Source: Candidatus Nomurabacteria bacterium (lineage in GTDB: Bacteria; Patescibacteriota; Minisyncoccia; Phycocordibacterales; UBA9973). From it: 64,000 bases of DNA. The notes under the pieces are model-generated. The model ran no database searches. It was not told the origin of the DNA and saw only the letters and a program-made list of their open reading frames with translations. Positions 28,583 through 43,793 of the stretch are shown piece after piece. The stretch spans positions 12,717 through 76,716 of the forward strand of contig JAHFNH010000003.1 in NCBI GenBank assembly GCA_023267435.1, in the 5' to 3' direction. Positions within the stretch are counted from its first letter, which is position 1, and each line of letters begins with the position of its first letter. Made by a program: the position numbers and the translations under genes.

Positions 28583-30259
28583 CTATATTTTATGCTTTCT
28601 TAGAACCATAACAAATGAAATAGAAACTAATGCGAGCAAACCAAACAATAATAATATAACAACATTCCATGGAGCAGGAGGAAGTCCTGTCTTAGGAAGA
28701 CTAGGAGCGGCCACCACCACTGTAGCAAGAGAATAATCGATCGCAGTAAGACCATTTGCACTTCCCTCAGCAGTTCCAGTATTCGTAGTTGTCTGTGTAA
28801 GATTTGTTAAACAAGTGAAAGTCCATGTTTCATTACTTTCAAGTAAATCGTTTTTATTAAGATCTCCTGGGTGTCCTACGACACGGCCTGGTAGACCAGT
28901 ACATTTGTCATCAGTGATACTAACATTACTTAATGGCGCAGTACCAGGATTGGTTACGGTATATGTGTAAGTAACTGCTCCACCATTTGCAGGAAGAACA
29001 AAAACGTTTGGCTTTTTAACTACATGGATTAGTGGTGGTATTATTGGAACTCCGACAACGACAGTTGCATTTGCAGTATCGATTGCGGTAAAACCATTAG
29101 CATCACCAGTTGCAGTGACAGTATTGGTAGTGGTTTGGGAGAGTGTTGTGGTACAAGTGTATGTCCAAGTTTCATTGATATCAAGTTTGGAATCATTATT
29201 TGAATCACCTGAAATGAAACCTACAGTAGAACATGCATTGTCAGAAACAATAACATTACTCATTGGAACTGTTCCGATATTCTTAACTGTATAAGTATAA
29301 GTAACTGGTCCAGGTCCTAGAGGTAATGCTAATGGAGTTGGAACTTTTAAAACACTGATCAAAGGTGGAACAGATGCTGTTGTAAGAGGACCACCACCTT
29401 GGGGAGCTGTTGAGGGAGGGGTTGGAGGGGTCACATATACAGGAATTGAAACAGTATGACTACCAGCGCCGTCTAGTGTAACAGACGCCGTATTTGAAAA
29501 TGCTCTTCCGTGTAATGTTGCACCAGCTAATAAAGCAACGCTTGTTTGATCTAAAATATTTCCTTCAAAAACAGATGTTGTTTCAAGTGTAGTTGCACCA
29601 CCGACAACCCAAAAAATATTGGAAGCCTGTGCACCACCACTTAAAAGAATGCTTTTAGCAGAACTGATATCAAGAGTTCCTGGTACTCTAAATATCCATA
29701 CATCACTTGCTGTTCCTGTAAGATGAATATCGCCTGTAATAATTACATTACCAGGACCAGAAAATGAATAAACTCCAGGAGCGATTGTTAAACCAGCAAG
29801 ATCCCAAGTTCCAGATCCGGTTCCAATATTTGTAGCATCAAATGGTCGAACAGTATTATTGTTAGCATCAGTATAAGCTGCTCCTGCAGCACCGACAGCA
29901 TTATCTACAAAAGTTTTATTGGCTGGTACAGTATCACCCGGCATAGCACAAGCAGCAAAACCGGTAACATTATATCCGGAATCAACTTCGTATATTTTTC
30001 CACCGCCAGTCATTGATGTACATGTCAAACCAGCAATGTTTGAACCTGCAAGTGGACTCACTCCAACATTTCCAGTAATTATAGTTGATGCGGGAGTAGC
30101 ATCAGTTACACCTGCATATGACAAAATTGAGAAACTATCTGCTCCTCCAAGATTAACAGTTGCCGGGCTAGCAAAAGCGTGCGCTTTAGTAGAGCCAGTG
30201 AAATTAAATACAAGAGAAAACAAAACAACTAAGAAAGAAAACTTTTTAAGTATTTTCAT
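28583..30259 (-). CDS. LPXTG-anchored surface protein with an N-terminal ice-binding-like (DUF3494) beta-helix domain and two DUF11-like repeats
   Basis: Signal peptide. AQASNIFWVVGGATTLETTSVFEGNILDQTSVALLAGATLHGRAFS...VTLDG matches the DUF3494 consensus. Two TYTYTV(K/T)N.GT.P.SNV...ETWT(Y/F)TC repeats. C-terminal LPKTG at 28685-28699, followed by a hydrophobic helix and RKHKI. Confidence 0.85.
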   Translation of the reverse strand: MKILKKFSFLVVLFSLVFNFTGSTKAHAFASPATVNLGGADSFSILSYAGVTDATPASTIITGNVGVSPLAGSNIAGLTCTSMTGGGKIYEVDSGYNVTGFAACAMPGDTVPANKTFVDNAVGAAGAAYTDANNNTVRPFDATNIGTGSGTWDLAGLTIAPGVYSFSGPGNVIITGDIHLTGTASDVWIFRVPGTLDISSAKSILLSGGAQASNIFWVVGGATTLETTSVFEGNILDQTSVALLAGATLHGRAFSNTASVTLDGAGSHTVSIPVYVTPPTPPSTAPQGGGPLTTASVPPLISVLKVPTPLALPLGPGPVTYTYTVKNIGTVPMSNVIVSDNACSTVGFISGDSNNDSKLDINETWTYTCTTTLSQTTTNTVTATGDANGFTAIDTANATVVVGVPIIPPLIHVVKKPNVFVLPANGGAVTYTYTVTNPGTAPLSNVSITDDKCTGLPGRVVGHPGDLNKNDLLESNETWTFTCLTNLTQTTTNTGTAEGSANGLTAIDYSLATVVVAAPSLPKTGLPPAPWNVVILLLFGLLALVSISFVMVLRKHKI

Positions 30260-30570: not shown

Positions 30571-31008
30571 TTATTGTGTTGAAGTGGATGCAGGAGCGGG
30601 ATTGGTTGGCATTGCTGGTCTGATTTGCACTGACTGAGCGGTTAAACTGCCATCTGGATTTGCTGTACCGGTAACGCTTACTTGTTTACCAACAACTAAA
30701 TCTGTCGATACTCCACTGACATTTTTTTCAATGGGAGTCTTGTCTGTATAAAAAATTATTTTAGAACTTCCGTCTCTAAGTTTTAGAGTAATACTTTGAG
30801 CGTCTTTAGAGAGAATTTCACCCACAGTCATTCCTCCAAAATTTCCACCATTCCTCATTCCACCAGCAGTACTTCTACCATTCAAACCAAAAGCTTGACT
30901 TCCCTGACCTCTAGCAGGTATTTGACTCTTACCATAAACCATACCTATATAAAACACTCCTACCAAAACTAAAATACCTATGACAACTAAACCAATTTTT
31001 TTATTCAT
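30571..31008 (-). CDS. small membrane-anchored protein with a Gly/Met-rich segment and a beta-rich domain (paralog of 34692-35213 and 12704-13243)
   Basis: One TM (IGLVVIGILVLVGVFYIGMVY), GGMRNGGNFGGM, then ...DLVVGKQVSVTGTANPDGSLTAQSVQIRPAMP. Confidence 0.65.
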   Translation of the reverse strand: MNKKIGLVVIGILVLVGVFYIGMVYGKSQIPARGQGSQAFGLNGRSTAGGMRNGGNFGGMTVGEILSKDAQSITLKLRDGSSKIIFYTDKTPIEKNVSGVSTDLVVGKQVSVTGTANPDGSLTAQSVQIRPAMPTNPAPASTSTQ

Positions 31009-31077
31009 ATGATTTTTAATAATTTTACTAATCTAATAATTTCGCCTCTTCGGCGAATCCGTCGATGAGACGGAAAT

Positions 31078-32301
31078 TTACTCATACCTAAGGGCATCGA
31101 TTGGATTTAAATTAGCCGCCCGACGCGCAGGATAATATCCAAAAACAATACCGATTCCAGCCGAAACCGCAAAAGCTAAAAGAACAGTGGGTAAAGAAAC
31201 TTGCGTTTGAATAATTCCAGAATATGTTACCGCCAGAGATATCAGCCACCCCAAAATAACACCTATCACACCACTGATAAACGTCAACATAACAGCCTCA
31301 AGTAAAAATTGAGTATTAATGTCTTTCTTTTTTGCACCGATTGCTTTACGTAAACCGATTTCTCTTGTACGTTCCGTAACGGTAGTCAGCATCATATTCA
31401 TAATTCCAATACCGCCAACCAAAAGAGAAATTCCAGCTACTGCTGCTAAAAAAAGCGTAAATGTACCCGTGACTGATGAAGCCGTAGCAATAATGTCTGC
31501 CTGATTTAATATATTAAAATCAGCTTTAGTAGGATCAGAAATATTGTGACGAATCAATAATAAATTTGTCACATCAGATTGTACTTGCGCTGACACATCA
31601 GAGCTTGTTGCCGAGATATCAATCTCGCTTAAATATTTATTTCCCGTAAGATATCTTTGAGCTGTGGTATAAGGAATAAAAATTGTATCATCACTATTAC
31701 TAAAACCAGAACCTCCTTTTGCTTTAGTTATACCAATAACAACATATTCACTTCCTGAAATACGAATCGTTTGACCAATAACACCTGTAACACCCACACC
31801 AAACAGATCATCCCTGGCAGTGGGTCCCAACACAGCAACTTTTGAACCACTTGTAATATTTTGAGTTGATAAAAAATCACCTTCATCAATAGATACATTT
31901 CGGACTGTAGAGTACGCTGGTTCTGTACCTATAATACTAGTATTTGTATTAGTGCCGGTACCGACAACTTGCTTACGCGAAGTTACTTCACGGACCACTC
32001 CAACCACATCAGAAATTTGAGACTCAATCGCATCAGCATCTTCTACTGTTAATGTCTGTGCTCCTCCACGTCCGGCACTTGGTCCACCGAAAGTGCGTGC
32101 AGCTCCAGGCATAACCATAACTAAGTTTGCACCAATAGACTGAATGCTTGAAGATATAGAATTCTGCGCACCTTGACCAATCGCAGTCATAGCAATAACA
32201 GAAGCTATACCGATTACAATTCCAAGCATCGTAAGTCCTGTACGTACTTTGTTGGCAAATAAAGCGCTAGATGTTTCACTTATGATATCTGATATTTTCA
32301 T
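31078..32301 (-). CDS. ABC transporter permease, MacB/FtsX-like family
   Basis: 407 aa. N-terminal TM, a periplasmic domain of about 200 aa, and three C-terminal TM helices. The start overlaps the ATPase stop by 4 nt. Confidence 0.85.
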   Translation of the reverse strand: MKISDIISETSSALFANKVRTGLTMLGIVIGIASVIAMTAIGQGAQNSISSSIQSIGANLVMVMPGAARTFGGPSAGRGGAQTLTVEDADAIESQISDVVGVVREVTSRKQVVGTGTNTNTSIIGTEPAYSTVRNVSIDEGDFLSTQNITSGSKVAVLGPTARDDLFGVGVTGVIGQTIRISGSEYVVIGITKAKGGSGFSNSDDTIFIPYTTAQRYLTGNKYLSEIDISATSSDVSAQVQSDVTNLLLIRHNISDPTKADFNILNQADIIATASSVTGTFTLFLAAVAGISLLVGGIGIMNMMLTTVTERTREIGLRKAIGAKKKDINTQFLLEAVMLTFISGVIGVILGWLISLAVTYSGIIQTQVSLPTVLLAFAVSAGIGIVFGYYPARRAANLNPIDALRYE

Positions 32302-33005
32302 ATGTTTTTTATAACTCTTTTTAAATGGCCATTCTCATTTTCAGTAAGTACGCCATCGCGAATAAATAAAATCCTATCGGCATGTTCAGCAATATATTGT
32401 TCATGAGTGATAAGTACGATTGTTCTGCCATGTTCTTTGTTTAATTTTTGAAAAGTGCCCAAAACTATTTCTCCTGTTTTTGAATCGAGGTTACCTGTAG
32501 GCTCGTCAGCTAAAATTAGTGACGGATTATTTACCAAAGCTCGTGCAATAGCAACACGTTGAATCTGTCCACCAGAAAGCTGATTTGAAAGATGATAGAA
32601 ATGCGATTCATTCAGACCCGCAGCAAAAAGGGCTTCTTTGGCGCGTTTTTCTCTTTCTTTTGTTTCTATTCCATCATAAACAAGCGGTAACATTACATTT
32701 CTGAGGACTGTAGTACGTGGTAATAAGTTGAATGATTGAAACACGAAACCAATTTTATCTTTGCGAATATCTGCTAGTTCATCATCTGAAAGAGTTGAAA
32801 CATCCTTGTCATCTAGAAGATACGTGCCACTCGTTGGATTATCCAATGCACCTAAAATATGCATAAGAGTCGACTTACCAGATCCAGAAGGTCCCATAAT
32901 AGCAACAAATTCTCCATCCTTTATAGTAAAGCTCACACCTTTAAGGGCCTGAAACTCAATGTCTCCAGATTTATATGTTTTTGTAATATCTTTTATTTCA
33001 ATCAT
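32298..33005 (-). CDS. ABC transporter ATP-binding protein (MacB/LolD-type)
   Basis: Walker [10 protein letters not shown], signature LSGGQIQR, Walker [12 protein letters not shown]. Confidence 0.9.
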
Positions 33006-33009
33006 AACT

Positions 33010-34686
33010 TTAATTACCTGGAATTCTTACTGCCCCACCTCCTCTGTTTCCACCAGCTCCACCGAGCAAACTAGATGTTGCTGTTTTTGCAGCCGTTGGT
33101 AATATTGTTCTTGTCACAATTTCATCTCCTTCTTTTATTCCAGAAACTATTTCAGTCTCTGAATTATTTGAAAGTCCTGTTGTTACAGTAATTTTATTCG
33201 GAATAATTGTCGAAATAGAACCTGGCAATCCATCTGTTGGTGCAGGTAGTGGTGCATCAAACATCTCAACATAACTTGAACCACCTTGTCTTTTCACTGC
33301 ACTGTTTGGTACTACTAAGACATCTTGTTTTACATTTGTGATAATAGAAGCTGAGACACTCATTCCGGGTTTTACCGTACTATCTTGATTATCAAAACTA
33401 ATTTTTACATTATAAGTCACAACTCCTTGCGTTACTGTACCTACAGTATCAATTTGTGCCACTTCTCCTGCAATTGAAAAATTCGGAATTGCATCAAAAG
33501 TAAGAGTAGCTTTTTGACCCAATTTTATCTTAGCTACATCTACCTCATTCAATGAGATAGTAGCCAATTGTTTAGTGGTAATGATCGTCCCTAAAATTGT
33601 TCCAGAACTTGCAGTTTCACCGACATTCACAGGAACACTTGCAACGGTACCTTCAAAAGGGGCAACGATGTTGTAATAAGATAGATTATCCCTGGCATCC
33701 TGTAAAGCATTTTCTTTTTGCTTTACTGTGAGTTGCGCTGTTTGTATATCAAGCACATCTGCACCGGATTGTAATTTACTCAACGCTTCTGTATTCTGAA
33801 TGATAGTTCTATCTGAATCTGTATTTACTTGAGCTTGATTTTGTAAAGTAAGCTGGTATGAATTATAACTTGCGCCGTAACTGCTTGCCTGAGTATTTGG
33901 TATTGCCACTGTCCACTCATTTATTCCACTGGAAGCATAATTGTTCGGAAACTGAATATATAGACCAAAAGTTCCTAAAGCAACAGGGGTAGTTGTATTT
34001 ACTGTACCGCTTCCATTTTCAAGGCCAGAAACTGAGAGATATGCTCCACTGCCACTATTATGAACAAGAATATCGTAACTTCCCTCCGTTGTTCCGGTGT
34101 AAGTTCCGCTAATTGTAGGAGCGGTGAAATTTGCGCTACTAGTTGAAGTAGATTTCGGAACAGCAACTATTCCGCTATTCAAAAAACTGCTGTGCGCATT
34201 TTTAACAACAAGATCTTGATTTTTCTTTGCATCTTGCGCAGCCGCAATAGCATTTTGATACTGAATAACAGATAATTTATCCGCTGGCTCTTGTAATTTT
34301 GCTAAAGAAAGATTGGCTGCATCAAGATTAATTTGCGCATCTCTAAGAGTTTTCTGAGCATCTTTACTGTCGAGAGAAAAAAGAAGTTTACCACTTCCTG
34401 CCTGATCACCTGGTTTGACATAAATATGAGTAATCGTACCAGAGACATTAGGTTTTAAATCAATCTGACTTGAAACGGAAACTTGTCCACTGCCGGTAAT
34501 GGAAGATACAATAGTTCCTTTAGTAACAGCTGACAAAACATATCGCGTATCCCCTGCGGTGCTAGTAATTTTTCCATAGCCCCAATACCCAACCCCAACA
34601 ACAATCAAAAGTATAACAATACTACTTATCAAGTGGTCAAGAGCATAATCTTTAATTTTTTGTAAATATGACATTATTTTTTCCAT
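33010..34686 (-). CDS. HlyD/MacA-family periplasmic adaptor (membrane fusion protein), long form with a Ser/Thr/Gly-rich insertion
   Basis: N-terminal TM, coiled-coil region (AQKTLRDAQINLDAANLSLAKLQ...), beta-barrel/lipoyl-like regions, and a Gly-rich C-terminal tail. Confidence 0.8.
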   Translation of the reverse strand: MEKIMSYLQKIKDYALDHLISSIVILLIVVGVGYWGYGKITSTAGDTRYVLSAVTKGTIVSSITGSGQVSVSSQIDLKPNVSGTITHIYVKPGDQAGSGKLLFSLDSKDAQKTLRDAQINLDAANLSLAKLQEPADKLSVIQYQNAIAAAQDAKKNQDLVVKNAHSSFLNSGIVAVPKSTSTSSANFTAPTISGTYTGTTEGSYDILVHNSGSGAYLSVSGLENGSGTVNTTTPVALGTFGLYIQFPNNYASSGINEWTVAIPNTQASSYGASYNSYQLTLQNQAQVNTDSDRTIIQNTEALSKLQSGADVLDIQTAQLTVKQKENALQDARDNLSYYNIVAPFEGTVASVPVNVGETASSGTILGTIITTKQLATISLNEVDVAKIKLGQKATLTFDAIPNFSIAGEVAQIDTVGTVTQGVVTYNVKISFDNQDSTVKPGMSVSASIITNVKQDVLVVPNSAVKRQGGSSYVEMFDAPLPAPTDGLPGSISTIIPNKITVTTGLSNNSETEIVSGIKEGDEIVTRTILPTAAKTATSSLLGGAGGNRGGGAVRIPGN

Positions 34687-34691
34687 AACTA

Positions 34692-35213
34692 TTATTGATT
34701 AGAACTATTAATTTGAGTTGGAACGGTCGAGGTAGTAGAAGGAAAAATAGGAGGAAAAGGCATAATTCTTATTAACTTTGCTTCAATCTGCCCTTGTGAA
34801 TTTGGAGAACCGACAACAACTACATTTTCATCAACCTTTAGATCGTTAATGGAAATACTATCTCTGACATCTATTATTTTTGTATCATTACTTGTAATTA
34901 CCACTTTTTCAGTATTATCCCTATCTTGAACTATAATATTTGGCAATTCAATTTTTATAATTTTACCTATAGCTCCATGGGCATTAGGAAAATTTCCCAT
35001 CATGCCACCAAAATAACCACGTCCATTCATCATACCAAAATTACGCCCATAATTCTCCCCCCAATCACGACCAAATGAAGCTTTATGAAAACCTACATAT
35101 ACTCCGGCTTGAAAGATAAGTGAAACAACAACAAGAATTCCCACAATCAACAAAACTCCAAAAACTTTTTTTGATTCTAAAACTTTTCTAATATTTTCTT
35201 TAATTTCTTTCAT
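34692..35213 (-). CDS. small membrane-anchored protein with a Gly/Met-rich segment (paralog of 30571-31008)
   Basis: One TM, FGMMNGRGYFGGMMGNF, then ...VVVVGSPNSQGQIEAKLIRIMP. Confidence 0.65.
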   Translation of the reverse strand: MKEIKENIRKVLESKKVFGVLLIVGILVVVSLIFQAGVYVGFHKASFGRDWGENYGRNFGMMNGRGYFGGMMGNFPNAHGAIGKIIKIELPNIIVQDRDNTEKVVITSNDTKIIDVRDSISINDLKVDENVVVVGSPNSQGQIEAKLIRIMPFPPIFPSTTSTVPTQINSSNQ

Positions 35214-35223
35214 AAAAATAAAA

Positions 35224-35625
35224 CTATGCTATTAATAATTTATGACGAGTTCGAATATTTCGCGCCATATAACGTAAGGATAATACAAATAAAAAAACTA
35301 AGGATAAAGACAAAATTAAATTTGTCATAGGTAATGATTCAATCATAGATAAAATGATTTCTTTCCAAAAATAAACAGCCTTGCTATTAGAAAACATTAG
35401 GGATAAATAATCATAAAAGCCAGAACTATAAAAATCAGAAACTAACTGCCTAATAAGCACAAAAAAGCCTAAAAGAGAAAATATTCCTGTAACAGAATAA
35501 ACCCATATTTTAATGTTATTATTTCTTTTTTCCTTAATAGAGATAGCGTTGAAAATATTCTCCGAAAGACTGCTCTCAGGACAAAACACGGCCTTTTGAA
35601 AAATTTTAATTAAATTCTTATCCAT
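35224..35625 (-). CDS. small two-TM membrane protein, putative anti-sigma factor
   Basis: 133 aa, lying 17 nt downstream of the ECF sigma gene. The call rests on position plus topology only. Confidence 0.4.
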   Translation of the reverse strand: MDKNLIKIFQKAVFCPESSLSENIFNAISIKEKRNNNIKIWVYSVTGIFSLLGFFVLIRQLVSDFYSSGFYDYLSLMFSNSKAVYFWKEIILSMIESLPMTNLILSLSLVFLFVLSLRYMARNIRTRHKLLIA

Positions 35626-35642
35626 ATCTCTATATACGTAGA

Positions 35643-36215
35643 CTAATTTGATTTTGGTGCAATCATCTTTCTTATTTGCAAAATAGCTCGAAGATGATGG
35701 CTTTTTATTGTGTTTAATGGTCTCTCAAGAACCTGAGATATTTCATCAAAAGTCATTTCTTCTTGATAATGAAGAATTAAAACTGTTTGAAATTGTTCCG
35801 GTAATTTTTCTAATAATGAATTCAATAAATCTACATCTTGTAATTTCTGCAGTATCTCATCGGGTAAAATTGCCTCATCCTTTATGGTTTCTGAGAAATT
35901 ATTTTCTTCATTATCCAAACTAGAAAACGGAATGGAGTTTTTTCTGCGCAAGAAATCAATAACCGTATTTCTAGCTATAGTAAAAATCCAGGTTTTAAAA
36001 CTGGATTTGTTTTGATTAAACTTTTCCAAACTTTTCCAAACTTTAACAAAAATTTCTTGAGTAATATCATCAGCTTCGTTATTTCCGACAAAACGCCGAA
36101 CAAAATTATAAATTTGTGGAGTATATTTATCAATAAGCTCCTTCAATGCAGTGTCATCGCCAGAGACATATAAACTAATTAATTCTGAATCTTTATCCAT
36201 TGTAATTTTAGGCAA
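35643..36215 (-). CDS. ECF-type RNA polymerase sigma-70 family factor
   Basis: Region 2 (DDITQEIFVKVWKSLEKF...FKTWIFTIARNTVIDFLRR) and region 4 (MTFDEISQVLERPLNTIKSHHLRA). Confidence 0.85.
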   Translation of the reverse strand: MPKITMDKDSELISLYVSGDDTALKELIDKYTPQIYNFVRRFVGNNEADDITQEIFVKVWKSLEKFNQNKSSFKTWIFTIARNTVIDFLRRKNSIPFSSLDNEENNFSETIKDEAILPDEILQKLQDVDLLNSLLEKLPEQFQTVLILHYQEEMTFDEISQVLERPLNTIKSHHLRAILQIRKMIAPKSN

Positions 36216-37740
36216 ATCCTGGAAAGAAATCTTTGTGAATATGGCTTGATTTCACTCCCATACCGAGAAGCATGTTTTCAAAAGTTTCGCACATGCCATG
36301 TGTTCCGGAAAGATAGAAGTGTCTTTCTAAGAAATCAGGAACTTCTTGTTTAACCATTTTCGCATCTACAAAACCTGTTTTACCATGCCATATTTCACCT
36401 GGTGGTACTGGATCCGTCACTGTATAAACAATTTTAAAGCCAAGTTCTACGGCTGATTGATCTAAAATATTTTCATAAGCAACATCAGCTGAAGTTCGAT
36501 TTGAATAAAACATGACTACATCCCTTTCTTGTTTTTTATCTATCATATACTTAACCATGCTTCTAAAAGGAGTGACACCGATTCCTCCGGCCATGAAAAC
36601 AAGTTTCTTATTTACATCTTTCGGTAAGACGAATTCCCCTGCCAGTTGCGAAGCGATGATAGTGTCCTGACCCTCTTTCATATTTAAAAGCTTGTTCTTG
36701 AAACTGCTACCGTTCGCATAAAATTTTATACCTATTCTGATTTCTCTTTCAGTAGGAGAAGAAGCTATTGTGAAATATCTTCGATTTCCTCGAGAGTCCG
36801 GCCACTTGTGACCGAGAGTCCATTCCAAATACTGCCCTGGTCTAAAATAAAACGGATGATCCGGAGAAAATACGAAATCATAAGTATTCTGCGCGACTTT
36901 TATTTTTTGCTTCAATACTAAGACAAACTTTTGTTTTGGGCTGACAATATAGGAAAATACGTTCCCAACTAAGAGAGATAACTCAGGCGTGGAATATAAC
37001 GATCCGATGTGCATAATTGGAGCAGACAAGAATCCGCAGATTGATCCATATAACATTCGTAAAATTCTTGTCGGAGGAGTAGTAAGAGGTTCTGTCAGCA
37101 TAACAAATGCGAAAAACAAAAGTGGAGAATAAAAAATAGATCTGACAAGAATGTTAAAACCACTGGCAAAATCAAAAGCTTGAGTAGCAACAATAGTAAT
37201 CAGAGCTATGGCAAAAAAAGTAAGAACCATATCGAATCTTCTCACCTTTCTTGTGATGAGCATTCCTCCAATAATAACGAAGGGTGCCATTGCTAAAGTT
37301 CCTACCCACCAGCTGGCGGATTGGCCCATAGTGATGGAAGTAAGTGCCACAGAAAGTGCAACTGGATTGAAAACATGCTTATTATCGAGCGCAAAAATAT
37401 ATTTTGATGCCATAGCCCAGACGGAAACCCAGAATAAAAATCCCCAATAAGGAAGACTGACAAAATCCTTTGCAGGGGTGACTATCAAAACTAAAATAAA
37501 AGCAGTGATAAAAGCGGATTCAACATTTGTTGGAACGCCTAAAAATGAAGCAAATATTTTATTTGAGATAAAACAGATTGCGGTGACAAAAACAACTTCT
37601 GAAAAAAACATAACTGGAGTGAAAGGCAAGATTCCAAAATAAGAAAGTATTAATCCTCCAGCAATCATAAAGAGTAATGCGTAAAGCACTAATCGATACA
37701 TTGTTACTTTGTTTAAAAGATTATCTATTATTTTTATCAT
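36208..37740 (-). CDS. membrane oxidoreductase: N-terminal polytopic domain fused to a ferredoxin-NADP-reductase-like FAD/NAD(P)-binding domain
   Basis: About 260 aa of TM domain. RRYFTIAS is an RxYS FAD motif. GGIGVTPF is the NAD(P)-binding GGxGxxP motif. Confidence 0.75.
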   Translation of the reverse strand: MIKIIDNLLNKVTMYRLVLYALLFMIAGGLILSYFGILPFTPVMFFSEVVFVTAICFISNKIFASFLGVPTNVESAFITAFILVLIVTPAKDFVSLPYWGFLFWVSVWAMASKYIFALDNKHVFNPVALSVALTSITMGQSASWWVGTLAMAPFVIIGGMLITRKVRRFDMVLTFFAIALITIVATQAFDFASGFNILVRSIFYSPLLFFAFVMLTEPLTTPPTRILRMLYGSICGFLSAPIMHIGSLYSTPELSLLVGNVFSYIVSPKQKFVLVLKQKIKVAQNTYDFVFSPDHPFYFRPGQYLEWTLGHKWPDSRGNRRYFTIASSPTEREIRIGIKFYANGSSFKNKLLNMKEGQDTIIASQLAGEFVLPKDVNKKLVFMAGGIGVTPFRSMVKYMIDKKQERDVVMFYSNRTSADVAYENILDQSAVELGFKIVYTVTDPVPPGEIWHGKTGFVDAKMVKQEVPDFLERHFYLSGTHGMCETFENMLLGMGVKSSHIHKDFFPGFA

Positions 37741-38474
37741 ATATATTTTTGAAAACCTTCCGTCATAGTCGCTACGCCATTTTTATCAATCATATATCCT
37801 TCAAAACCGGAAAGATTATTTATAAAATTAATTCCCTCCCGCCCCATCACGAAGGCTGCTGTGGCAAATCGATCTGCTTCATAGACATTCGGACCTATTA
37901 CTGTCAGGCTGACAACCTCATCAAGAGGATCATTTTTATCTTTTGGATTATAAATATGCTTCCCTCTGATATACGTGCCACTCGTAGCAATTCCTTTATC
38001 TTTTAAGTATACAACTTTTATAACCTGTTTTAAATCAAAAGGATTCGCTATGCCTATCGCCCAAGGCTTATCTTCTTTATTTTTACCTTCCACTTCAATA
38101 TCCCCTCCTGCTTCAACATAAAAATCTTTGATTCCATTTTTCCTGAGCATTTCGGCAGCATTATGTATCGCCCAGCCTTTCACTGTCCCTGATGGGTCGC
38201 AAAATCCATCATTCATGATATCGAAAAATCCATTAGTTTCTTTTTTTGTTTCTTCAGATAATCTAAGAACTTCTTTCATGTCCTCACTATATTCTCTCTT
38301 TTTAATCTTATCTTTATTTATTTTTGTTATTTCACTCGTATCTTTGTAGATAGAAAATTTTTCATCTATATAAGTGAAATAATTAAAAACATTTTCAAAT
38401 ATTTCTTTATCAATTGATTCGTCTGGAATTTCTATTATTACAGGCATGCCCATAATAATTCTTGTTTCTTTCAT
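37737..38474 (-). CDS. apbE: FAD:protein FMN transferase (ApbE family)
   Basis: GFFDIMNDGFCDPSGTVKGWA...GIATSGTY are ApbE signature motifs. 245 aa. Confidence 0.8.
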   Translation of the reverse strand: MKETRIIMGMPVIIEIPDESIDKEIFENVFNYFTYIDEKFSIYKDTSEITKINKDKIKKREYSEDMKEVLRLSEETKKETNGFFDIMNDGFCDPSGTVKGWAIHNAAEMLRKNGIKDFYVEAGGDIEVEGKNKEDKPWAIGIANPFDLKQVIKVVYLKDKGIATSGTYIRGKHIYNPKDKNDPLDEVVSLTVIGPNVYEADRFATAAFVMGREGINFINNLSGFEGYMIDKNGVATMTEGFQKYI

Positions 38475-38475
38475 A

Positions 38476-39117
38476 TTATTGTTTTGCTTGTGTTAATGCA
38501 TAAGCCAATGATTGCATGAATGCATCGCTAGTATATGTCGCACCGGAGACTCCGTTAATATTCGCAGACTGTGCAGAAATGGCTTCTTGTTTTAAGACAG
38601 GCATTGAATAATCATATATCTGCTGCGATCTTCTTGGACCTGGTTCAGTGGATGGATATGTAATGTTGGAAAGTTTTCCATTTGATATTATGGCTGTAAC
38701 TTTTACATAACCGGAATACGCATATTCATTGCTGCCAACGTAAGTTCCATCTGCATAAAGACCCTTAGGCTTAGTCACAGGTGGTGTCGTAGTAGGAGTA
38801 GTTTGAGTTGTAGGTTTTGTGGTTGGTGTGGTTGTCGGTTTAGTATTTGTTTTTGGAGTAGTTTTAGTTGGAGGAATAAAATCACCTTCTTCGTCAAATG
38901 GATTACTATCTTCATCACCTCCTGAAATACTATTAGGTACCTGATATACCTGAGTGCTGGAAGATGTTGTATTTAAAGCATCTGTCGTAGTCTTCTTTCC
39001 CACTTCAGTGACAGGAACATAAGGAGCCACGTAACTCAAACTACCATTGGGGCCGTAATAAACGACATACAACGCGAAACTTCCTATAACAAAAGATGAT
39101 AGTAAAAACTTTTTCAT
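38476..39117 (-). CDS. membrane-anchored extracytoplasmic FMN-binding domain protein (predicted ApbE substrate)
   Basis: N-terminal TM, Thr/Pro-rich linker, and an FMN_bind domain with GVSGATYTS, the flavinylation [S/T]GA[S/T] motif. Confidence 0.75.
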   Translation of the reverse strand: MKKFLLSSFVIGSFALYVVYYGPNGSLSYVAPYVPVTEVGKKTTTDALNTTSSSTQVYQVPNSISGGDEDSNPFDEEGDFIPPTKTTPKTNTKPTTTPTTKPTTQTTPTTTPPVTKPKGLYADGTYVGSNEYAYSGYVKVTAIISNGKLSNITYPSTEPGPRRSQQIYDYSMPVLKQEAISAQSANINGVSGATYTSDAFMQSLAYALTQAKQ

Positions 39118-39212: not shown

Positions 39213-39677
39213 TTAAGAAACAGTAATCCCCTCCTCTTTTAGAGTCTTTTCTATGCGAAAAATAAGAAAACCAATTCTGCCCAACATTATTCCAGCAATA
39301 AGACTCGAGGTGAAAGCGGTCAATAATACTCCACGAAACCAATGTTCTAAAATTCTTTCTCTAAATAATGTAAAAAGAAGATAAGGCAATAAAAAAGAGA
39401 CGCCCATTTTATCCATGCGAGAAACAACTTTTTTATTTTCTGGATGCCAATGAACAGAAGAAATTCGTCCTGTTGCGATGCCTATGCCAATACCAATTAA
39501 AAATCCTACACTAGCCAAAAATATACCGATCTCATTTTCAAAAACGTTGTAAGAAATAAGAGAAATCATAACAAAAAAAATAACAGCAAAATAAGCTAAT
39601 CTTATTTTCAGATCCCTGTGTAAATGCCTTCGAGCTATGTTATGATGTTTTTTAATTTTTTTAAATAATACTTTCAT
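39213..39677 (-). CDS. small polytopic membrane protein
   Basis: 154 aa with 3-4 TM helices. Confidence 0.45.
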   Translation of the reverse strand: MKVLFKKIKKHHNIARRHLHRDLKIRLAYFAVIFFVMISLISYNVFENEIGIFLASVGFLIGIGIGIATGRISSVHWHPENKKVVSRMDKMGVSFLLPYLLFTLFRERILEHWFRGVLLTAFTSSLIAGIMLGRIGFLIFRIEKTLKEEGITVS

Positions 39678-40851
39678 TTTTTTTAATCATTCTAGGTTGC
39701 AGAAAAATAAAGACACACAATGCGACAAGTGTCGTTATTACCGCGAAACCGAAAGCATAAGTTGGATGCAACAACCACAATGCTCCGGCAATTACTGAAG
39801 CCGGCAAATATATCAAACCATTTACAAAATTCAACATTCCTATCGCTGTCGCTCTTCTGTCTTTTTCTAAGTCAGTCACAAATGCTTTGCTTTGTGCTTC
39901 ATCGATACTGTAAAAAATTCCAAACAATATAAATAAAGCTATTACTTCCCATTTATGCGTCGCAAACACAAAACCTAGTGACATCAAAGCGTATATGATA
40001 TAACCCAGTATAATTATATACTTTCTGCCAATAAAGTCCCCCAGCTTGCCTATCGGAGCTGAAACAATAACGAAACTAATATTAAATAATGCGTAAAGCA
40101 AAACTACATCCTTAATCGCAAAACCGAGAGTATAGGCTCGAAGTAAAAGAAAACCGAAACTAAAATATGCTAGAGAAAAAATTCCAGCTGGAATAAGATA
40201 GAATTTAAATTCCTTACTCAATGTCCCCCATGCTTTAAAAATATTTTCTCTCTCGTGCGGTGTGCCGGGATGATCATCCATTAATGAAAGAATAATAACA
40301 GCAATCACTGCCGAAATAGCCGCCATAATAAAAAGAATACGAAAAGCGTGCATATTCGTGCCGAAGTGATTTAATAAAAGATAAGCAACAATCGGACCTA
40401 GTATTGCTCCTGATTTGTCTAGTGCTTTATGCACACCGAAAGCGTATCCCCTATTGGATTCTTCGGCGACAGAAGAAAGCCAAGCATCTCTCGGTGGACC
40501 ACGGAAACTTTTTCCTAAACGTTCAATAATTCTAAACGAAGCAACAGCTGAAACTGAAGTAATGACGAGTAATAATATTTTTGCTAAAGTTGAAAAACCG
40601 TAACCGAGAATGGTTAAAGGTTTTCTTTTGCCAGACCTATCAGAAAGCCAACCAGCAAAATAATCCAATGATGATGCAAAAAAATCTGAAAAACCTTCCA
40701 CAAGGCCAAGCAATGCCGAAGAAGCACCGAGTACTACTGTAAAAAATATCGAGAATACTGAAAAAATAGCCTCTGAACTGACATCAGTAAAAAAGCTGAC
40801 AATACCAAGCTTCAATACATCCGGGTGAACATTAAATAATCTTTTTTTCAT
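39661..40851 (-). CDS. MFS transporter
   Basis: 396 aa with 12 predicted TM helices. MFS motif A-like GWLSDRSGKRKP. Confidence 0.8.
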   Translation of the reverse strand: MKKRLFNVHPDVLKLGIVSFFTDVSSEAIFSVFSIFFTVVLGASSALLGLVEGFSDFFASSLDYFAGWLSDRSGKRKPLTILGYGFSTLAKILLLVITSVSAVASFRIIERLGKSFRGPPRDAWLSSVAEESNRGYAFGVHKALDKSGAILGPIVAYLLLNHFGTNMHAFRILFIMAAISAVIAVIILSLMDDHPGTPHERENIFKAWGTLSKEFKFYLIPAGIFSLAYFSFGFLLLRAYTLGFAIKDVVLLYALFNISFVIVSAPIGKLGDFIGRKYIIILGYIIYALMSLGFVFATHKWEVIALFILFGIFYSIDEAQSKAFVTDLEKDRRATAIGMLNFVNGLIYLPASVIAGALWLLHPTYAFGFAVITTLVALCVFIFLQPRMIKKNESII

Positions 40852-40866
40852 GCTGTTCTAAATTAA

Positions 40867-42057
40867 TTACAGATTAGATATTCGTTCACCGAATTTCAAA
40901 CTATATGCTTTGTTTTGGTATCTCTTAGTAATTACGTAATTCATAAGCCAAGTTATACAAAACAAAATAGCAAAATATATTGCCCCTGCTTTACTTATTC
41001 GAGGTAGATTATTTGCAGACAAATAACCTAATATTCCTGAAATAACTCCAATACTTGTAATTGTTTGCAAAGTTTTTAAATTGTTGCTTGTGCTTTGATT
41101 TTTTATTTCCACCAGATTGCTGATCGCGGAAGAAAGATAATCAGCAGTCATTTTCCAAATCTCCTTGATATAAGAAAGAGTATCTGTCAGCGTTTCAAAC
41201 TTATATTCAAAAAGAGCCACTAATTCTTTTTCAATTTCAAGATGCTTGGCAATAGAAGAACGCGTACTAATATAAGAATTCATTTGATTGATTCTGTTGC
41301 TGATAAGGCTGATTGTCTTTTGATATCCATCAAGCTTGCCTCTTATATCATCTACATCTTTTCCTTTAATATTTTTTGCTTCTTTTATGCCGGAAATCTC
41401 TTCCCAAATTGTTCTATGGATATGTAAATATTTCTCAAGCTGATCTTTGAATTCTCGAAAGAAAATCTGCATCTCAATTAGATCATTCAAGTATTTGCCA
41501 GCTTCTTTCGGAGCGGAAATAAAGATATATTGCGGAGTTTTATAAACAGTTATGCCACCGCTTGAAATTTTGGTATAAATTTCGCCAAACAAAGATTCAT
41601 CTAAAACAAAATCTTTATCTTTTTCATTTAAAAAAGAAACTGCGACAGGATGGTCTGTCTTTATGTTTGCCAGTACCTTTGGAGTCGGAGCACCGAGAGA
41701 AAAAATATATGAAATTGCCGGACTAAGTTTTTCCTGAAAATATTTCTCCAGCATATCTTGGGCAGCAGAAATATTTTCAGAAAAAATTTCTAAAATATAA
41801 AGCCCATCTTCATAATATCGAATCTCTATTCCAGAAGATGTTATTGCTTTTATATATTCAAAATATCCGGATTCGCGGGAAACACTGGTCAGATCAAGAT
41901 TTTTCTGAATTTTTTTTAATTCTTCCTTTGATAAATTTAAATTTGAAGTACCATGCATGAACAAACTGTATATCTCGCTTAAATGCAAAGTTGTCCGTTG
42001 ATACCAACCTCCATAAGTTACCTTGTATTTATTTTTTGAAACAGCTTTTGTTTTCAT
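40867..42057 (-). CDS. hypothetical protein with a long cytoplasmic coiled-coil-rich domain and two C-terminal TM helices (CorA-like topology, but no GMN motif)
   Basis: 396 aa. The C-terminus has IGVISGILGYLS and AIYFAILFCITWLMNYV. Confidence 0.45.
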   Translation of the reverse strand: MKTKAVSKNKYKVTYGGWYQRTTLHLSEIYSLFMHGTSNLNLSKEELKKIQKNLDLTSVSRESGYFEYIKAITSSGIEIRYYEDGLYILEIFSENISAAQDMLEKYFQEKLSPAISYIFSLGAPTPKVLANIKTDHPVAVSFLNEKDKDFVLDESLFGEIYTKISSGGITVYKTPQYIFISAPKEAGKYLNDLIEMQIFFREFKDQLEKYLHIHRTIWEEISGIKEAKNIKGKDVDDIRGKLDGYQKTISLISNRINQMNSYISTRSSIAKHLEIEKELVALFEYKFETLTDTLSYIKEIWKMTADYLSSAISNLVEIKNQSTSNNLKTLQTITSIGVISGILGYLSANNLPRISKAGAIYFAILFCITWLMNYVITKRYQNKAYSLKFGERISNL

Positions 42058-42080: not shown

Positions 42081-42458
42081 TTATTCAATTCTTAAGAAGA
42101 AACCGTCACAATTTATATCTTTACAATTACATAATATTTTAATACCTTCGATTTCTGTCAGATTATAATTCACTGTAATTTCTTCTCCCTCTTTTATTTC
42201 CTTAACAGATTTTAAAAATGGCTCTATTTCATTGGTAATTAATTGTGCATTAGGATTACACGAATGATTAATCCAATTCAAAACATTTGGGTCATTTACC
42301 CATCCTAATCTCCCAATCTTTGCCCAATGTGGTTGTGGTTGATATGAAATGTCACTAATGGGAATAAAATAAAATTTCTCATCTTCATTTATTTCTTTTT
42401 CAGAAAAAACACCACTACCTTGTATTTTAGATGGTCTAATTTTTAGAAATTGATGCAT
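42081..42458 (-). CDS. SET-domain protein (putative protein lysine methyltransferase)
   Basis: GSGVFS, NHSCNPN, EEITVNY and the post-SET Cys cluster CNCKDINCDG. Confidence 0.7.
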   Translation of the reverse strand: MHQFLKIRPSKIQGSGVFSEKEINEDEKFYFIPISDISYQPQPHWAKIGRLGWVNDPNVLNWINHSCNPNAQLITNEIEPFLKSVKEIKEGEEITVNYNLTEIEGIKILCNCKDINCDGFFLRIE

Positions 42459-43104
42459 ATTTATTTAAAGTTTCTTTAATAAGCAAATCAAAAGTATCTA
42501 TCTTTTTAATATCTTTCCAATCATTAAGGATTAGTGAAAGCTCAGTGCATGCAACTAAAATATATTCCGCTTGATTATAATATTTGTCTATCAAAGATAC
42601 TAACCAGACTTTTTGTTCTTGGCTTATATTTCCTGCATTATATTGATTAATAATCTCCCCCATTTTTTGTTTTTCTGTTGATTGAAGTTGTATGATTTTA
42701 TCACCACTCAAATCAAAAAGTTTTTCTTCAATAGAATTTGGGCTAGCTAAGAAAAGAATCCTATTCTCTCCCAACCGATTTTTTACATTTGAACTTATAT
42801 CTAAAATAGGCTTGTTAATCTTAGTATTAAAATAATTCAGATAAATAAATGCTGTATTGCAAACCACAACAATAAAATCACTCTCTTTTTCTAAAAATTT
42901 TATGCCTTCAATATATACACCCAATTTCTGTTCATTTTCTCCTGAAGTTAATTCAGGTGCTGGAATACTATTTATTATAATTCTTGGAAATTCAATATTA
43001 TTTACTGGATGAAACTTTTCCTTGAAAGAAGAAATGAATTTTTCATAGAAAACAGCAGATGATTCAGGTCCAATACCTCCAAGAATTCCTATTGTTTTAG
43101 ACAT
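42436..43104 (-). CDS. Asp/Glu racemase family protein
   Basis: MSKTIGILGGIGPESSAVFYEK...VVVCNTA are typical aspartate racemase motifs. Confidence 0.75.
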   Translation of the reverse strand: MSKTIGILGGIGPESSAVFYEKFISSFKEKFHPVNNIEFPRIIINSIPAPELTSGENEQKLGVYIEGIKFLEKESDFIVVVCNTAFIYLNYFNTKINKPILDISSNVKNRLGENRILFLASPNSIEEKLFDLSGDKIIQLQSTEKQKMGEIINQYNAGNISQEQKVWLVSLIDKYYNQAEYILVACTELSLILNDWKDIKKIDTFDLLIKETLNKYASISKN

Positions 43105-43162: not shown

Positions 43163-43489
43163 CTATGTATTCTTGCGGAAGCCTTGCTTCCGCAAAATAT
43201 AAACCTCAATCAAGGTAGCCACAATCATAAATACAAGAATCATCCAAATTAATTCCTCTATAACGCTTGGACCCAATATTGGACCAAAAGTTTTCACATA
43301 ATTCATTGACCAAGCTCCTAACATGACTGCTCTTATATCAATAATAAAAAATAACAATCCGCCCAATGCTCCAGAAATAAGAATAAATTTCCAATGGGCA
43401 AAAATAACTTTTCTAAACAAAATAAACCATAAAATAATAACTGGAGTAAAAAACAAAGCGTCTAAAATAAAATATGTCCATTTATCCAT
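43163..43489 (-). CDS. lycopene cyclase domain (CrtYcd-like) small membrane protein
   Basis: 108 aa, 3 TM, with a PxxEE motif (GPSVIEELIWMILVF). Confidence 0.55.
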   Translation of the reverse strand: MDKWTYFILDALFFTPVIILWFILFRKVIFAHWKFILISGALGGLLFFIIDIRAVMLGAWSMNYVKTFGPILGPSVIEELIWMILVFMIVATLIEVYILRKQGFRKNT

Positions 43490-43793
43490 AAATTTTTCTT
43501 CGTAATAACAAAAGAATAATTACGACCTCTTGGGGAAAAGTAAACAATATTAAATATTCTTCCAAAGGTAATCCAAACAAAGAATATCCGAGCGTGTTTT
43601 TATAATACCAAATATGCCAAAATACACTGCCAACAATATCAAAAAAGAAACCCCATAAAAATGCACCGATGGTTATAAAAATAATAAGTTTCCAATATTT
43701 TTTTAAATACTGAAAATTAAATATCCAAAGAATTACAGATGGGATAAAAACAAAAATTGTGAGCCAAGCTAAATAAGGATAATTAAATGACAT
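43482..43793 (-). CDS. lycopene cyclase domain (CrtYcd-like) small membrane protein, second of a pair
   Basis: 103 aa, 3 TM, with GLPLEEYLILFTFP. It overlaps the upstream partner by 8 nt. Confidence 0.55.
   Translation of the reverse strand: MSFNYPYLAWLTIFVFIPSVILWIFNFQYLKKYWKLIIFITIGAFLWGFFFDIVGSVFWHIWYYKNTLGYSLFGLPLEEYLILFTFPQEVVIILLLLRRKIYG

Follow-up and report, generated by a model that had tools for sequence, protein, structure and literature searches.

What is the role of a membrane domain fused to an NAD(P)H- and flavin-binding domain when it is encoded directly downstream of a flavin transferase and a candidate substrate of that transferase? The question is raised by a gene at positions 36208-37740 (minus strand) of a 64,000-nucleotide stretch of contig JAHFNH010000003.1 from a Candidatus Nomurabacteria bacterium; this whole stretch is called the window below. 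The encoded fusion protein is an ordinary member of a published, widespread class termed 'NQR/RNF-like', and we consider it probable that it forms the membrane subunit of a flavin-based electron export module of that class. Gene coordinates were taken from a listing of the open reading frames (ORFs) in the window with their translations, and the module consists of three genes:

36208..37740, minus strand: fusion gene, 510 amino acids, NqrB/RnfD-like membrane domain followed by an FNR-type (ferredoxin reductase-type) FAD/NAD(P)H domain (ORF list)
37737..38474, minus strand: ApbE-type FAD:protein FMN transferase, short form, 245 amino acids (Pfam ApbE, 145 bits)
38476..39117, minus strand: NqrC/RnfG-like FMN_bind protein, 213 amino acids (Pfam FMN_bind, 34 bits)

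An initial annotation of this DNA had described an ORF with a membrane N-terminus and the motifs RRYFTIAS and GGIGVTPF; the ORF lies at exactly the coordinates that it gave, and both motifs are present. It had also reported that the start of the gene overlaps the ApbE gene, and the fusion-gene ATG indeed overlaps the ApbE-gene TGA as ATGA; 1 nucleotide separates the FMN_bind stop from the ApbE start.

The membrane domain matched the Pfam family NQR2_RnfD_RnfE (PF03116) over amino acids 154-265, with 31.7 bits against a gathering score of 27.7. Because a single-sequence PDB search with the whole fusion protein returned FNR-type domains only, a family profile of the membrane domain was needed; when this was built from the membrane domains of 20 family members, a single PDB sequence was matched, RnfD of A. 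vinelandii (E=6e-5), and hhalign against E. coli RsxD gave a probability of 91.8%. The multi-helix character seen in the initial annotation is borne out, with a helix count nearer 10-11 than the eight or so given there. The N-terminal 270 amino acids hold two histidines, H122 and H244, as had been noted. Conservation was counted in a 79-sequence alignment across five phyla, to which all residue frequencies below refer: H122 is the only invariant histidine, and H244 is kept in 54 of the 79 sequences. The three cysteines are not conserved. No Fe-S signature was found in the protein, and fold searches gave no match between its membrane domain and those of the ferric-reductase family. The comparison proposed in the initial annotation, between the NqrB/RnfD, PepSY_TM and ferric-reductase families, came out in favour of the first; a PepSY_TM identity was rejected on the fold-search results. 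Its opinion that the domain is unlikely to be of the NOX/FRE type agrees with the single invariant histidine, the lack of conserved cysteines and the absence of a ferric-reductase fold match, and the finding that it had named as fatal to that opinion, a di-heme ferric reductase with four conserved histidines, did not emerge. The membrane domain is NqrB/RnfD-like and not heme-based.

Comparison with NqrB and RnfD suggests which flavin site the fusion has kept and which it has lost. MAFFT addition of RsxD to the family alignment was unreliable in the N-terminal half, and HMMER local alignments (fusion 67-137 with RsxD 69-134, and fusion 151-262 with RsxD 228-334) were used together with motif spacing; the alignment of the N-terminal halves is weak (domain score 0.6 bits). 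The elements of the membrane domain are as follows:

36937..37740, minus strand: membrane domain, amino acids 1-268, NqrB/RnfD fold, predicted N-in/C-in
37357..37383, minus strand: NKHVFNPVA motif, amino acids 120-128, cytoplasmic side, putative counterpart of the riboflavin-binding NqrB segment G198-R-N200-F-L-N-P-A205
37297..37326, minus strand: short outside loop GQSASWWVGT, amino acids 139-148 (HMMER local alignments with RsxD)
37072..37098, minus strand: LTEPLTTPP motif, amino acids 215-223, corresponding to the NqrB/RnfD 'TDP' motif

In E. coli RsxD, the flavinylation motif DGISQATPL (T187) aligns with its equivalents in three structurally solved RnfDs, and the loop carrying this threonine is reduced from about 93 residues to about 13 in the fusion. 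The threonine that binds covalent FMN in the periplasmic loop of NqrB/RnfD ([ST]xAT motif) has no counterpart in the fusion, where position 143 is variable (S35/T19/N8/I7). In V. cholerae NqrB, riboflavin is hydrogen-bonded near the cytoplasmic side by T162, N200 and D346, as well as by the backbone of G198, A205 and F342 (Hau et al. 2023). NqrB positions were transferred to the fusion through an NqrB-RsxD alignment; in this mapping, which passes through the weak alignment, T162 would correspond to T79 (T or S in 78/79), N200 to H122 (79/79, an N-to-H change) and D346 to E217 (79/79, a D-to-E change). Other invariant residues are K113 (NqrB K191), N125-P126 and F209 (the NqrB gate residue F338), and within the two motifs the invariant positions are H122, N125 and P126 of NKHVFNPVA and E217, P218, T220 and P222 of LTEPLTTPP. 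Putative counterparts of the Na+ path are kept at E74 (NqrB E157) and F209, and the acidic residue at the NqrB periplasmic exit has no clear counterpart. The loop charges fit the N-in/C-in topology, with K113, K121, H122 and R164-R168 inside and loop 139-148 outside. The fusion appears to keep the riboflavin-site counterparts while the covalent-FMN loop is lost.

The remainder of the protein consists of two subdomains, each with a diagnostic motif:

36625..36930, minus strand: FAD-binding beta-barrel subdomain, amino acids 271-372 (FAD_binding_6, 18.8 bits, just under the cutoff)
36760-36783, minus strand: RRYFTIAS, amino acids 320-327, within the FAD-binding subdomain
36211..36606, minus strand: NAD(P)H-binding subdomain, amino acids 379-510 (Pfam NAD_binding_1, PF00175, 60.6 bits, amino acids 382-486)
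36565-36588, minus strand: GGIGVTPF, amino acids 385-392, within the NAD(P)H-binding subdomain

The NCBIfam Fre model matched with 80 bits. Residues G385, G386, G388, T390 and P391 of the NAD(P)H-binding subdomain are invariant, position 415, which bears on the choice between NADH and NADPH, is K or R in 49 of the 79 sequences, and the subdomain ends with DFFPGFA at the C-terminus. Judged by its motifs, this is an FNR-type domain, with a beta-barrel bearing RxY[ST], a Rossmann-type subdomain bearing GxGxxP and the FNR fold, and the initial annotation was right that an FNR-type FAD/NAD(P)H module is fused to the membrane domain.

This combination has been described before. Méheust et al. 2021 (eLife, PMC8238504) reported 127 'NQR/RNF-like' flavinylation gene clusters, mainly in Actinobacteria and the candidate phyla radiation (CPR), which are defined operationally by a PF03116 + PF00175 fusion inside an ApbE/FMN_bind cluster, that is, with ApbE and/or FMN_bind within five genes. 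Huang et al. 2024 (PMC10979944) presented an AlphaFold-multimer model of a Ktedonobacter racemifer pair in which the NqrC/RnfG-like subunit packs against the NqrB/RnfD-like subunit and the FMN_bind-type domain lies outside; they also described that the NqrB/RnfD flavinylation site is not conserved in NQR/RNF-like proteins. At the level of sequence, the window fusion has every one of these attributes: the PF03116 match, PF00175 at the cytosolic C-terminus, ApbE and FMN_bind genes directly upstream in overlapping or abutting frames, and loss of the flavinylated threonine, with the shortened loop and the variable position 143. The passages of the two papers that were consulted contain no mention of the deletion of the whole flavinylated-threonine loop, the retention of riboflavin-site residues, the lack of an export signal in ApbE, or the ECF (extracytoplasmic function) sigma factor and MacAB neighbours that are described below.

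The fusion is also far from rare. A word-index search with the fusion gave about 7,900 matches; the best 120 were all full-length (about 505-510 amino acids) with 53-77% identity, the named ones among these 120 were mostly from Patescibacteria, and the closest named relative among them came from a Minisyncoccia metagenome-assembled genome (73% identity). A filter-free search with the membrane domain yielded 1,407 clusters at 50% identity, 315 of them at E<=1e-30, and most of the 1,407 were 490-515 amino acids long, the size of the same fusion. From species-representative genomes, 80 related loci (L001-L080) were collected and their proteins clustered all against all; they include Patescibacteria, Ktedonobacteria and other Chloroflexota, Mesorhizobium, Kaistia, Methylocapsa, Spirochaetota and Actinobacteria (Agreia, Arthrobacter). 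About 60 of the 80 loci have their genes in the order FMN_bind - ApbE - fusion; ApbE is present in 68, and an FMN_bind-type partner in 52 + 18. The fusion had been called unusual in the initial annotation, a description that must be withdrawn, given how common such fusions are in Patescibacteria and in several further phyla.

In the 80 loci, no further recurrent redox gene was found within 6 kb of the module. Recurrent neighbours include an OmpR-type two-component system accompanied by a small PepSY protein, seen in Alphaproteobacteria, in Spirochaetota and in part of the CPR loci; a type-II P-type cation ATPase is sometimes nearby. In loci L033-L038, L043, L054, L050, L066 and L071, the flanks of the module are regulatory (OmpR-type, PepSY) rather than encoding a terminal reductase.

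Taken together with the neighbouring genes, these features suggest a path for electrons. NAD(P)H would reduce the FAD of the cytoplasmic FNR domain, and the FAD would pass electrons to a non-covalent flavin near the cytoplasmic side, in the riboflavin-like site (T79, K113, H122, N125-P126, E217). From there, electrons would cross the membrane to the FMN attached by ApbE to T194 of the NqrC-like protein, which would dock at the outer surface, in the position that the FMN of NqrB itself would occupy. That protein has a Thr/Pro-rich linker of about 110 amino acids (26 Thr, 15 Pro), which would allow the flavin domain to swing out from the membrane, and the tethered T194 flavin would hand electrons to some extracytoplasmic acceptor. 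Overall, electrons would run backwards along the segment from FMN-C through FMN-B to riboflavin that forms the second half of electron transfer in NQR, with the FNR domain replacing quinone. Very probably, the fusion is where NAD(P)H feeds electrons into a flavin relay that leads to the flavinylated neighbour. The initial annotation had suggested a cytoplasmic electron entry point for that neighbour, and this role is supported and matches the published NQR/RNF-like proposal; the putative survival of a cytoplasm-proximal flavin site would be an added argument for the same mechanism.

The flavinylated neighbour itself presents a more complicated picture. Its N-terminus is a membrane anchor, MKKFLLSSFVIGSFALYVVYYG, consisting of MKK and a 19-residue hydrophobic segment with weakly biased flanking charges; the N-terminal hydropathy of its orthologs is about 2.2, and those of diderm lineages have apparent cleavable signal peptides (L039, L042, L066, L067, L071). 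The flavinylation motif lies about 20 amino acids from the C-terminus:

38536-38547, minus strand: SGAT flavinylation motif, T194, in the FMN_bind domain

The simple view of flavinylation outside the cytoplasm is complicated by an ApbE without an export signal. The window ApbE starts MKETRIIMGMPV, the first beta-strand of the fold, with no longer ORF possible, and neither a signal peptide nor a lipobox was found in it. Essentially all ApbEs of the 68 loci that encode one likewise lack a hydrophobic N-terminus, whatever the phylum, as do the best 120 database relatives (237-293 amino acids, 96-100% query coverage). Relative to E. coli ApbE, the window protein has a deletion of ~52 amino acids between the two T-fold halves, and this short form is seen in all phyla that have the module. 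Its segments ATSGTY, KHIYNP and EADRFATA align with those of the Ser/His/Asp triad in E. coli ApbE, and the active-site residues S241, H257 and D285 of Vc ApbE have counterparts. Because the triad residues are kept and an export signal is absent, it looks like an active, cytoplasmic 'mini-ApbE'. A cytoplasmic ApbE has been reported in Klebsiella, and cytoplasmic ApbEs are known only for soluble fumarate reductases; in the literature searched, we found no discussion of signal-less ApbEs in NQR/RNF-like clusters. It is possible that the FMN_bind protein is flavinylated before Sec export, that a second, exported ApbE is encoded elsewhere in the genome, or that the 'mini-ApbE' has a different role. 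Tat export of a pre-flavinylated FMN_bind protein was rejected as a general answer, with a twin Arg in 2-3 of ~52 partners and Mesorhizobium orthologs starting MKQ/MKK. A programmed frameshift or read-through fusing FMN_bind to ApbE was also rejected, because neither the distance nor the frame between the two genes is constant from locus to locus.

A second partner type occurs upstream of ApbE in 18 loci from Saccharibacteria, Uhrbacteria and Actinobacteria (for example, L053, L057, L059, L069 and L075). The one example tested (L075) has no Pfam FMN_bind match, several members lack an [ST][GAS]A[ST] motif, and the accompanying ApbE is a distinct form of about 290 amino acids with the start 'FEAIGT'.

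Several points weigh against electron export by this route. The contrast between a signal-less ApbE and an exported-looking substrate leaves a flavinylation step outside the cell unsupported, and the mapping of the riboflavin site depends on the weak N-terminal-half alignment plus motif spacing. The FNR domain may keep its own FAD or may, like Fre, reduce the membrane flavin directly. No terminal acceptor gene is conserved near the module in the 80 loci, and the literature searched held no experimental study of any family member.

How far do other explanations account for the same observations? A ferric reductase of the NOX/FRE/MsrQ type, with two b hemes carrying electrons from the FNR-type domain across the membrane, is effectively refuted by the histidine counts and fold searches given above. 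It is very improbable that the fusion is a leftover or accessory subunit of a full Rnf/Nqr complex, with RnfA/E/B/C or NqrA/D/E encoded elsewhere and the usual semicircular, ion-pumping electron path. Although the homology to NqrB/RnfD, NqrC/RnfG and the FAD domain of NqrF would be expected of such a complex, the fusion lacks the covalent-FMN loop by which RnfD/NqrB are defined, an NqrF-type 2Fe-2S domain and conserved cysteines are absent, and the three-gene unit is self-contained across five phyla. Moreover, the 80 related loci have no recurrent gene for another Rnf/Nqr subunit within 6 kb, and no RsxA/B/C/E-like ORF was found in the window by a single-sequence search, which is insensitive (RsxD itself gave E=2.1 against the fusion). 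The NqrB fold resembles that of Amt and urea transporters, and IrtAB is a transporter-reductase fusion, so the membrane domain could be imagined mainly as a channel or transporter whose FNR domain reduces an imported substrate, or as the Na+/H+-conducting part of an ion-coupled module. We find this improbable: the similarity to RnfD/NqrB is far above that to channels, the tight linkage to ApbE and the SGAT protein favours a flavin relay, and the missing counterpart of the periplasmic-exit acid speaks against ion coupling. Ion coupling would in any case extend electron export more than compete with it, and the two are compatible.

The signal-less ApbEs, which start at the first beta-strand with the triad kept, the Klebsiella precedent and the weak charge bias around the FMN_bind anchor would also suit an arrangement in which flavinylation and the flavinylated domain are cytoplasmic, the FMN_bind protein being a tethered shuttle between the FNR and membrane domains or being exported after modification. 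This arrangement too has little likelihood, given the apparent cleavable signal peptides of the diderm orthologs, the long Thr/Pro-rich linker, which is typical of exported proteins, and the outside position in the published multimer model; in a relay confined to the cytoplasm, the membrane domain would serve no purpose. Electron export to the outside remains our preferred reading, and a bolder form of it, which we rate as rather unlikely, is a flavin-only, self-sufficient transmembrane wire in which the 'mini-ApbE' flavinylates the carrier in the cytoplasm before export and the NqrB-like domain might couple ion movement. The coupling is suggested because the Na+-path counterparts of NqrB E157 and F338 are retained, and such pre-export flavinylation would remove the need for FAD export. 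If true, the three genes would form an electron sink or a minimal redox pump for respiration-poor CPR bacteria.

Directly downstream of the fusion gene lies a regulatory gene:

35643..36215, minus strand: ECF sigma factor gene

The overlap of this gene with the end of the fusion gene, reported in the initial annotation, holds if the sigma factor uses a TTG start; with the ATG 15 nucleotides further in, a 7-nucleotide gap results. The sigma gene is packed tightly against the fusion gene and may be co-transcribed with it, and it falls outside the conserved three-gene module. Promoter and terminator scans gave the same counts as expected from shuffling. The downstream region (30571-36215, minus strand) holds the ECF sigma factor, a 133-residue membrane protein (a possible anti-sigma factor), a DUF5666-like protein, an HlyD-type adaptor, a MacB ATPase, a MacB permease and a second DUF5666 protein. 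The same MacAB/HlyD/DUF5666 combination accompanies the module, at a distance of up to 6 kb, in about a dozen related loci, mostly from CPR (for example, L004, L013, L014, L024, L030 and L065), and L014 also has an ECF sigma and anti-sigma pair.

Elsewhere in the window, all on the minus strand, the following were observed:

28583-30259: 558-residue surface protein that combines an ice-binding-like domain with DUF11 and DUF7507 repeats and has an LPKTG sortase-type anchor at its C-terminus
40867-42057: 396-residue protein with a C-terminal membrane segment and no Pfam match, upstream of a major facilitator superfamily transporter (39661-40851)
42081-42458: small SET-domain protein, 125 amino acids, with an NHSCNPN motif, whose gene overlaps one of the Asp/Glu racemase family (42436-43104)
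43163-43793: two adjacent membrane proteins of about 105 amino acids each, one with a sub-threshold lycopene cyclase domain match, which may be a heterodimeric cyclase-like pair

CPR bacteria mostly lack respiratory chains, and a compact three-gene module leading from NAD(P)H to the exterior could be among their few membrane redox devices, which might serve as an electron sink, to reduce metals or to maintain the redox state of the envelope. What the window itself gains is a secure annotation, not a discovery. With about 1,400 clusters at 50% identity, the family is large, and its occurrence in cultivable Ktedonobacteria, Mesorhizobium and Actinobacteria opens it to direct tests of which flavins the membrane domain binds, where flavinylation takes place, what accepts the electrons and whether ions move.

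Known systems share parts of this design. The FAD/NADH domain of NqrF and other FNR-family reductases (Hmp, BenC, Fre) resemble the fusion in their FNR fold of two subdomains, in the RxY[ST]-type motif for flavin and the GGxGxxP motif for the nucleotide, and in an aromatic residue at the C-terminus, but the fusion has neither a 2Fe-2S ferredoxin domain nor a heme domain, and its electron acceptor would be the membrane domain of the same polypeptide. NOX/FRE/STEAP and MsrQ-type reductases follow the same logic, in that electrons from a cytoplasmic FAD/NAD(P)H domain enter a redox relay that spans the membrane; their relay consists of two b hemes in a six-helix ferric-reductase domain, whereas that of the fusion would consist of flavins in an NqrB fold. 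Extracellular electron transfer in Listeria (Ndh2, EetA/B, PplA, FmnB) likewise takes electrons from NADH to an ApbE-flavinylated extracytoplasmic FMN_bind protein in a monoderm cell, but it uses the quinone pool and the exported lipoprotein FmnB, whereas the window module has no quinone step and an ApbE without an export signal. Compared with NqrB/RnfD, which belong to a six-subunit complex, the fusion stands outside such a complex, lacks the covalent FMN loop, is about 100 residues shorter, carries its own NAD(P)H dehydrogenase and presumably moves electrons in the reverse direction, from inside to outside. The closest counterpart is the published NQR/RNF-like system: it too has these two apparent subunits, has lost the NqrB/RnfD flavinylation site and is found mainly in CPR, Actinobacteria and Ktedonobacteria, and the window module differs from it in nothing essential.
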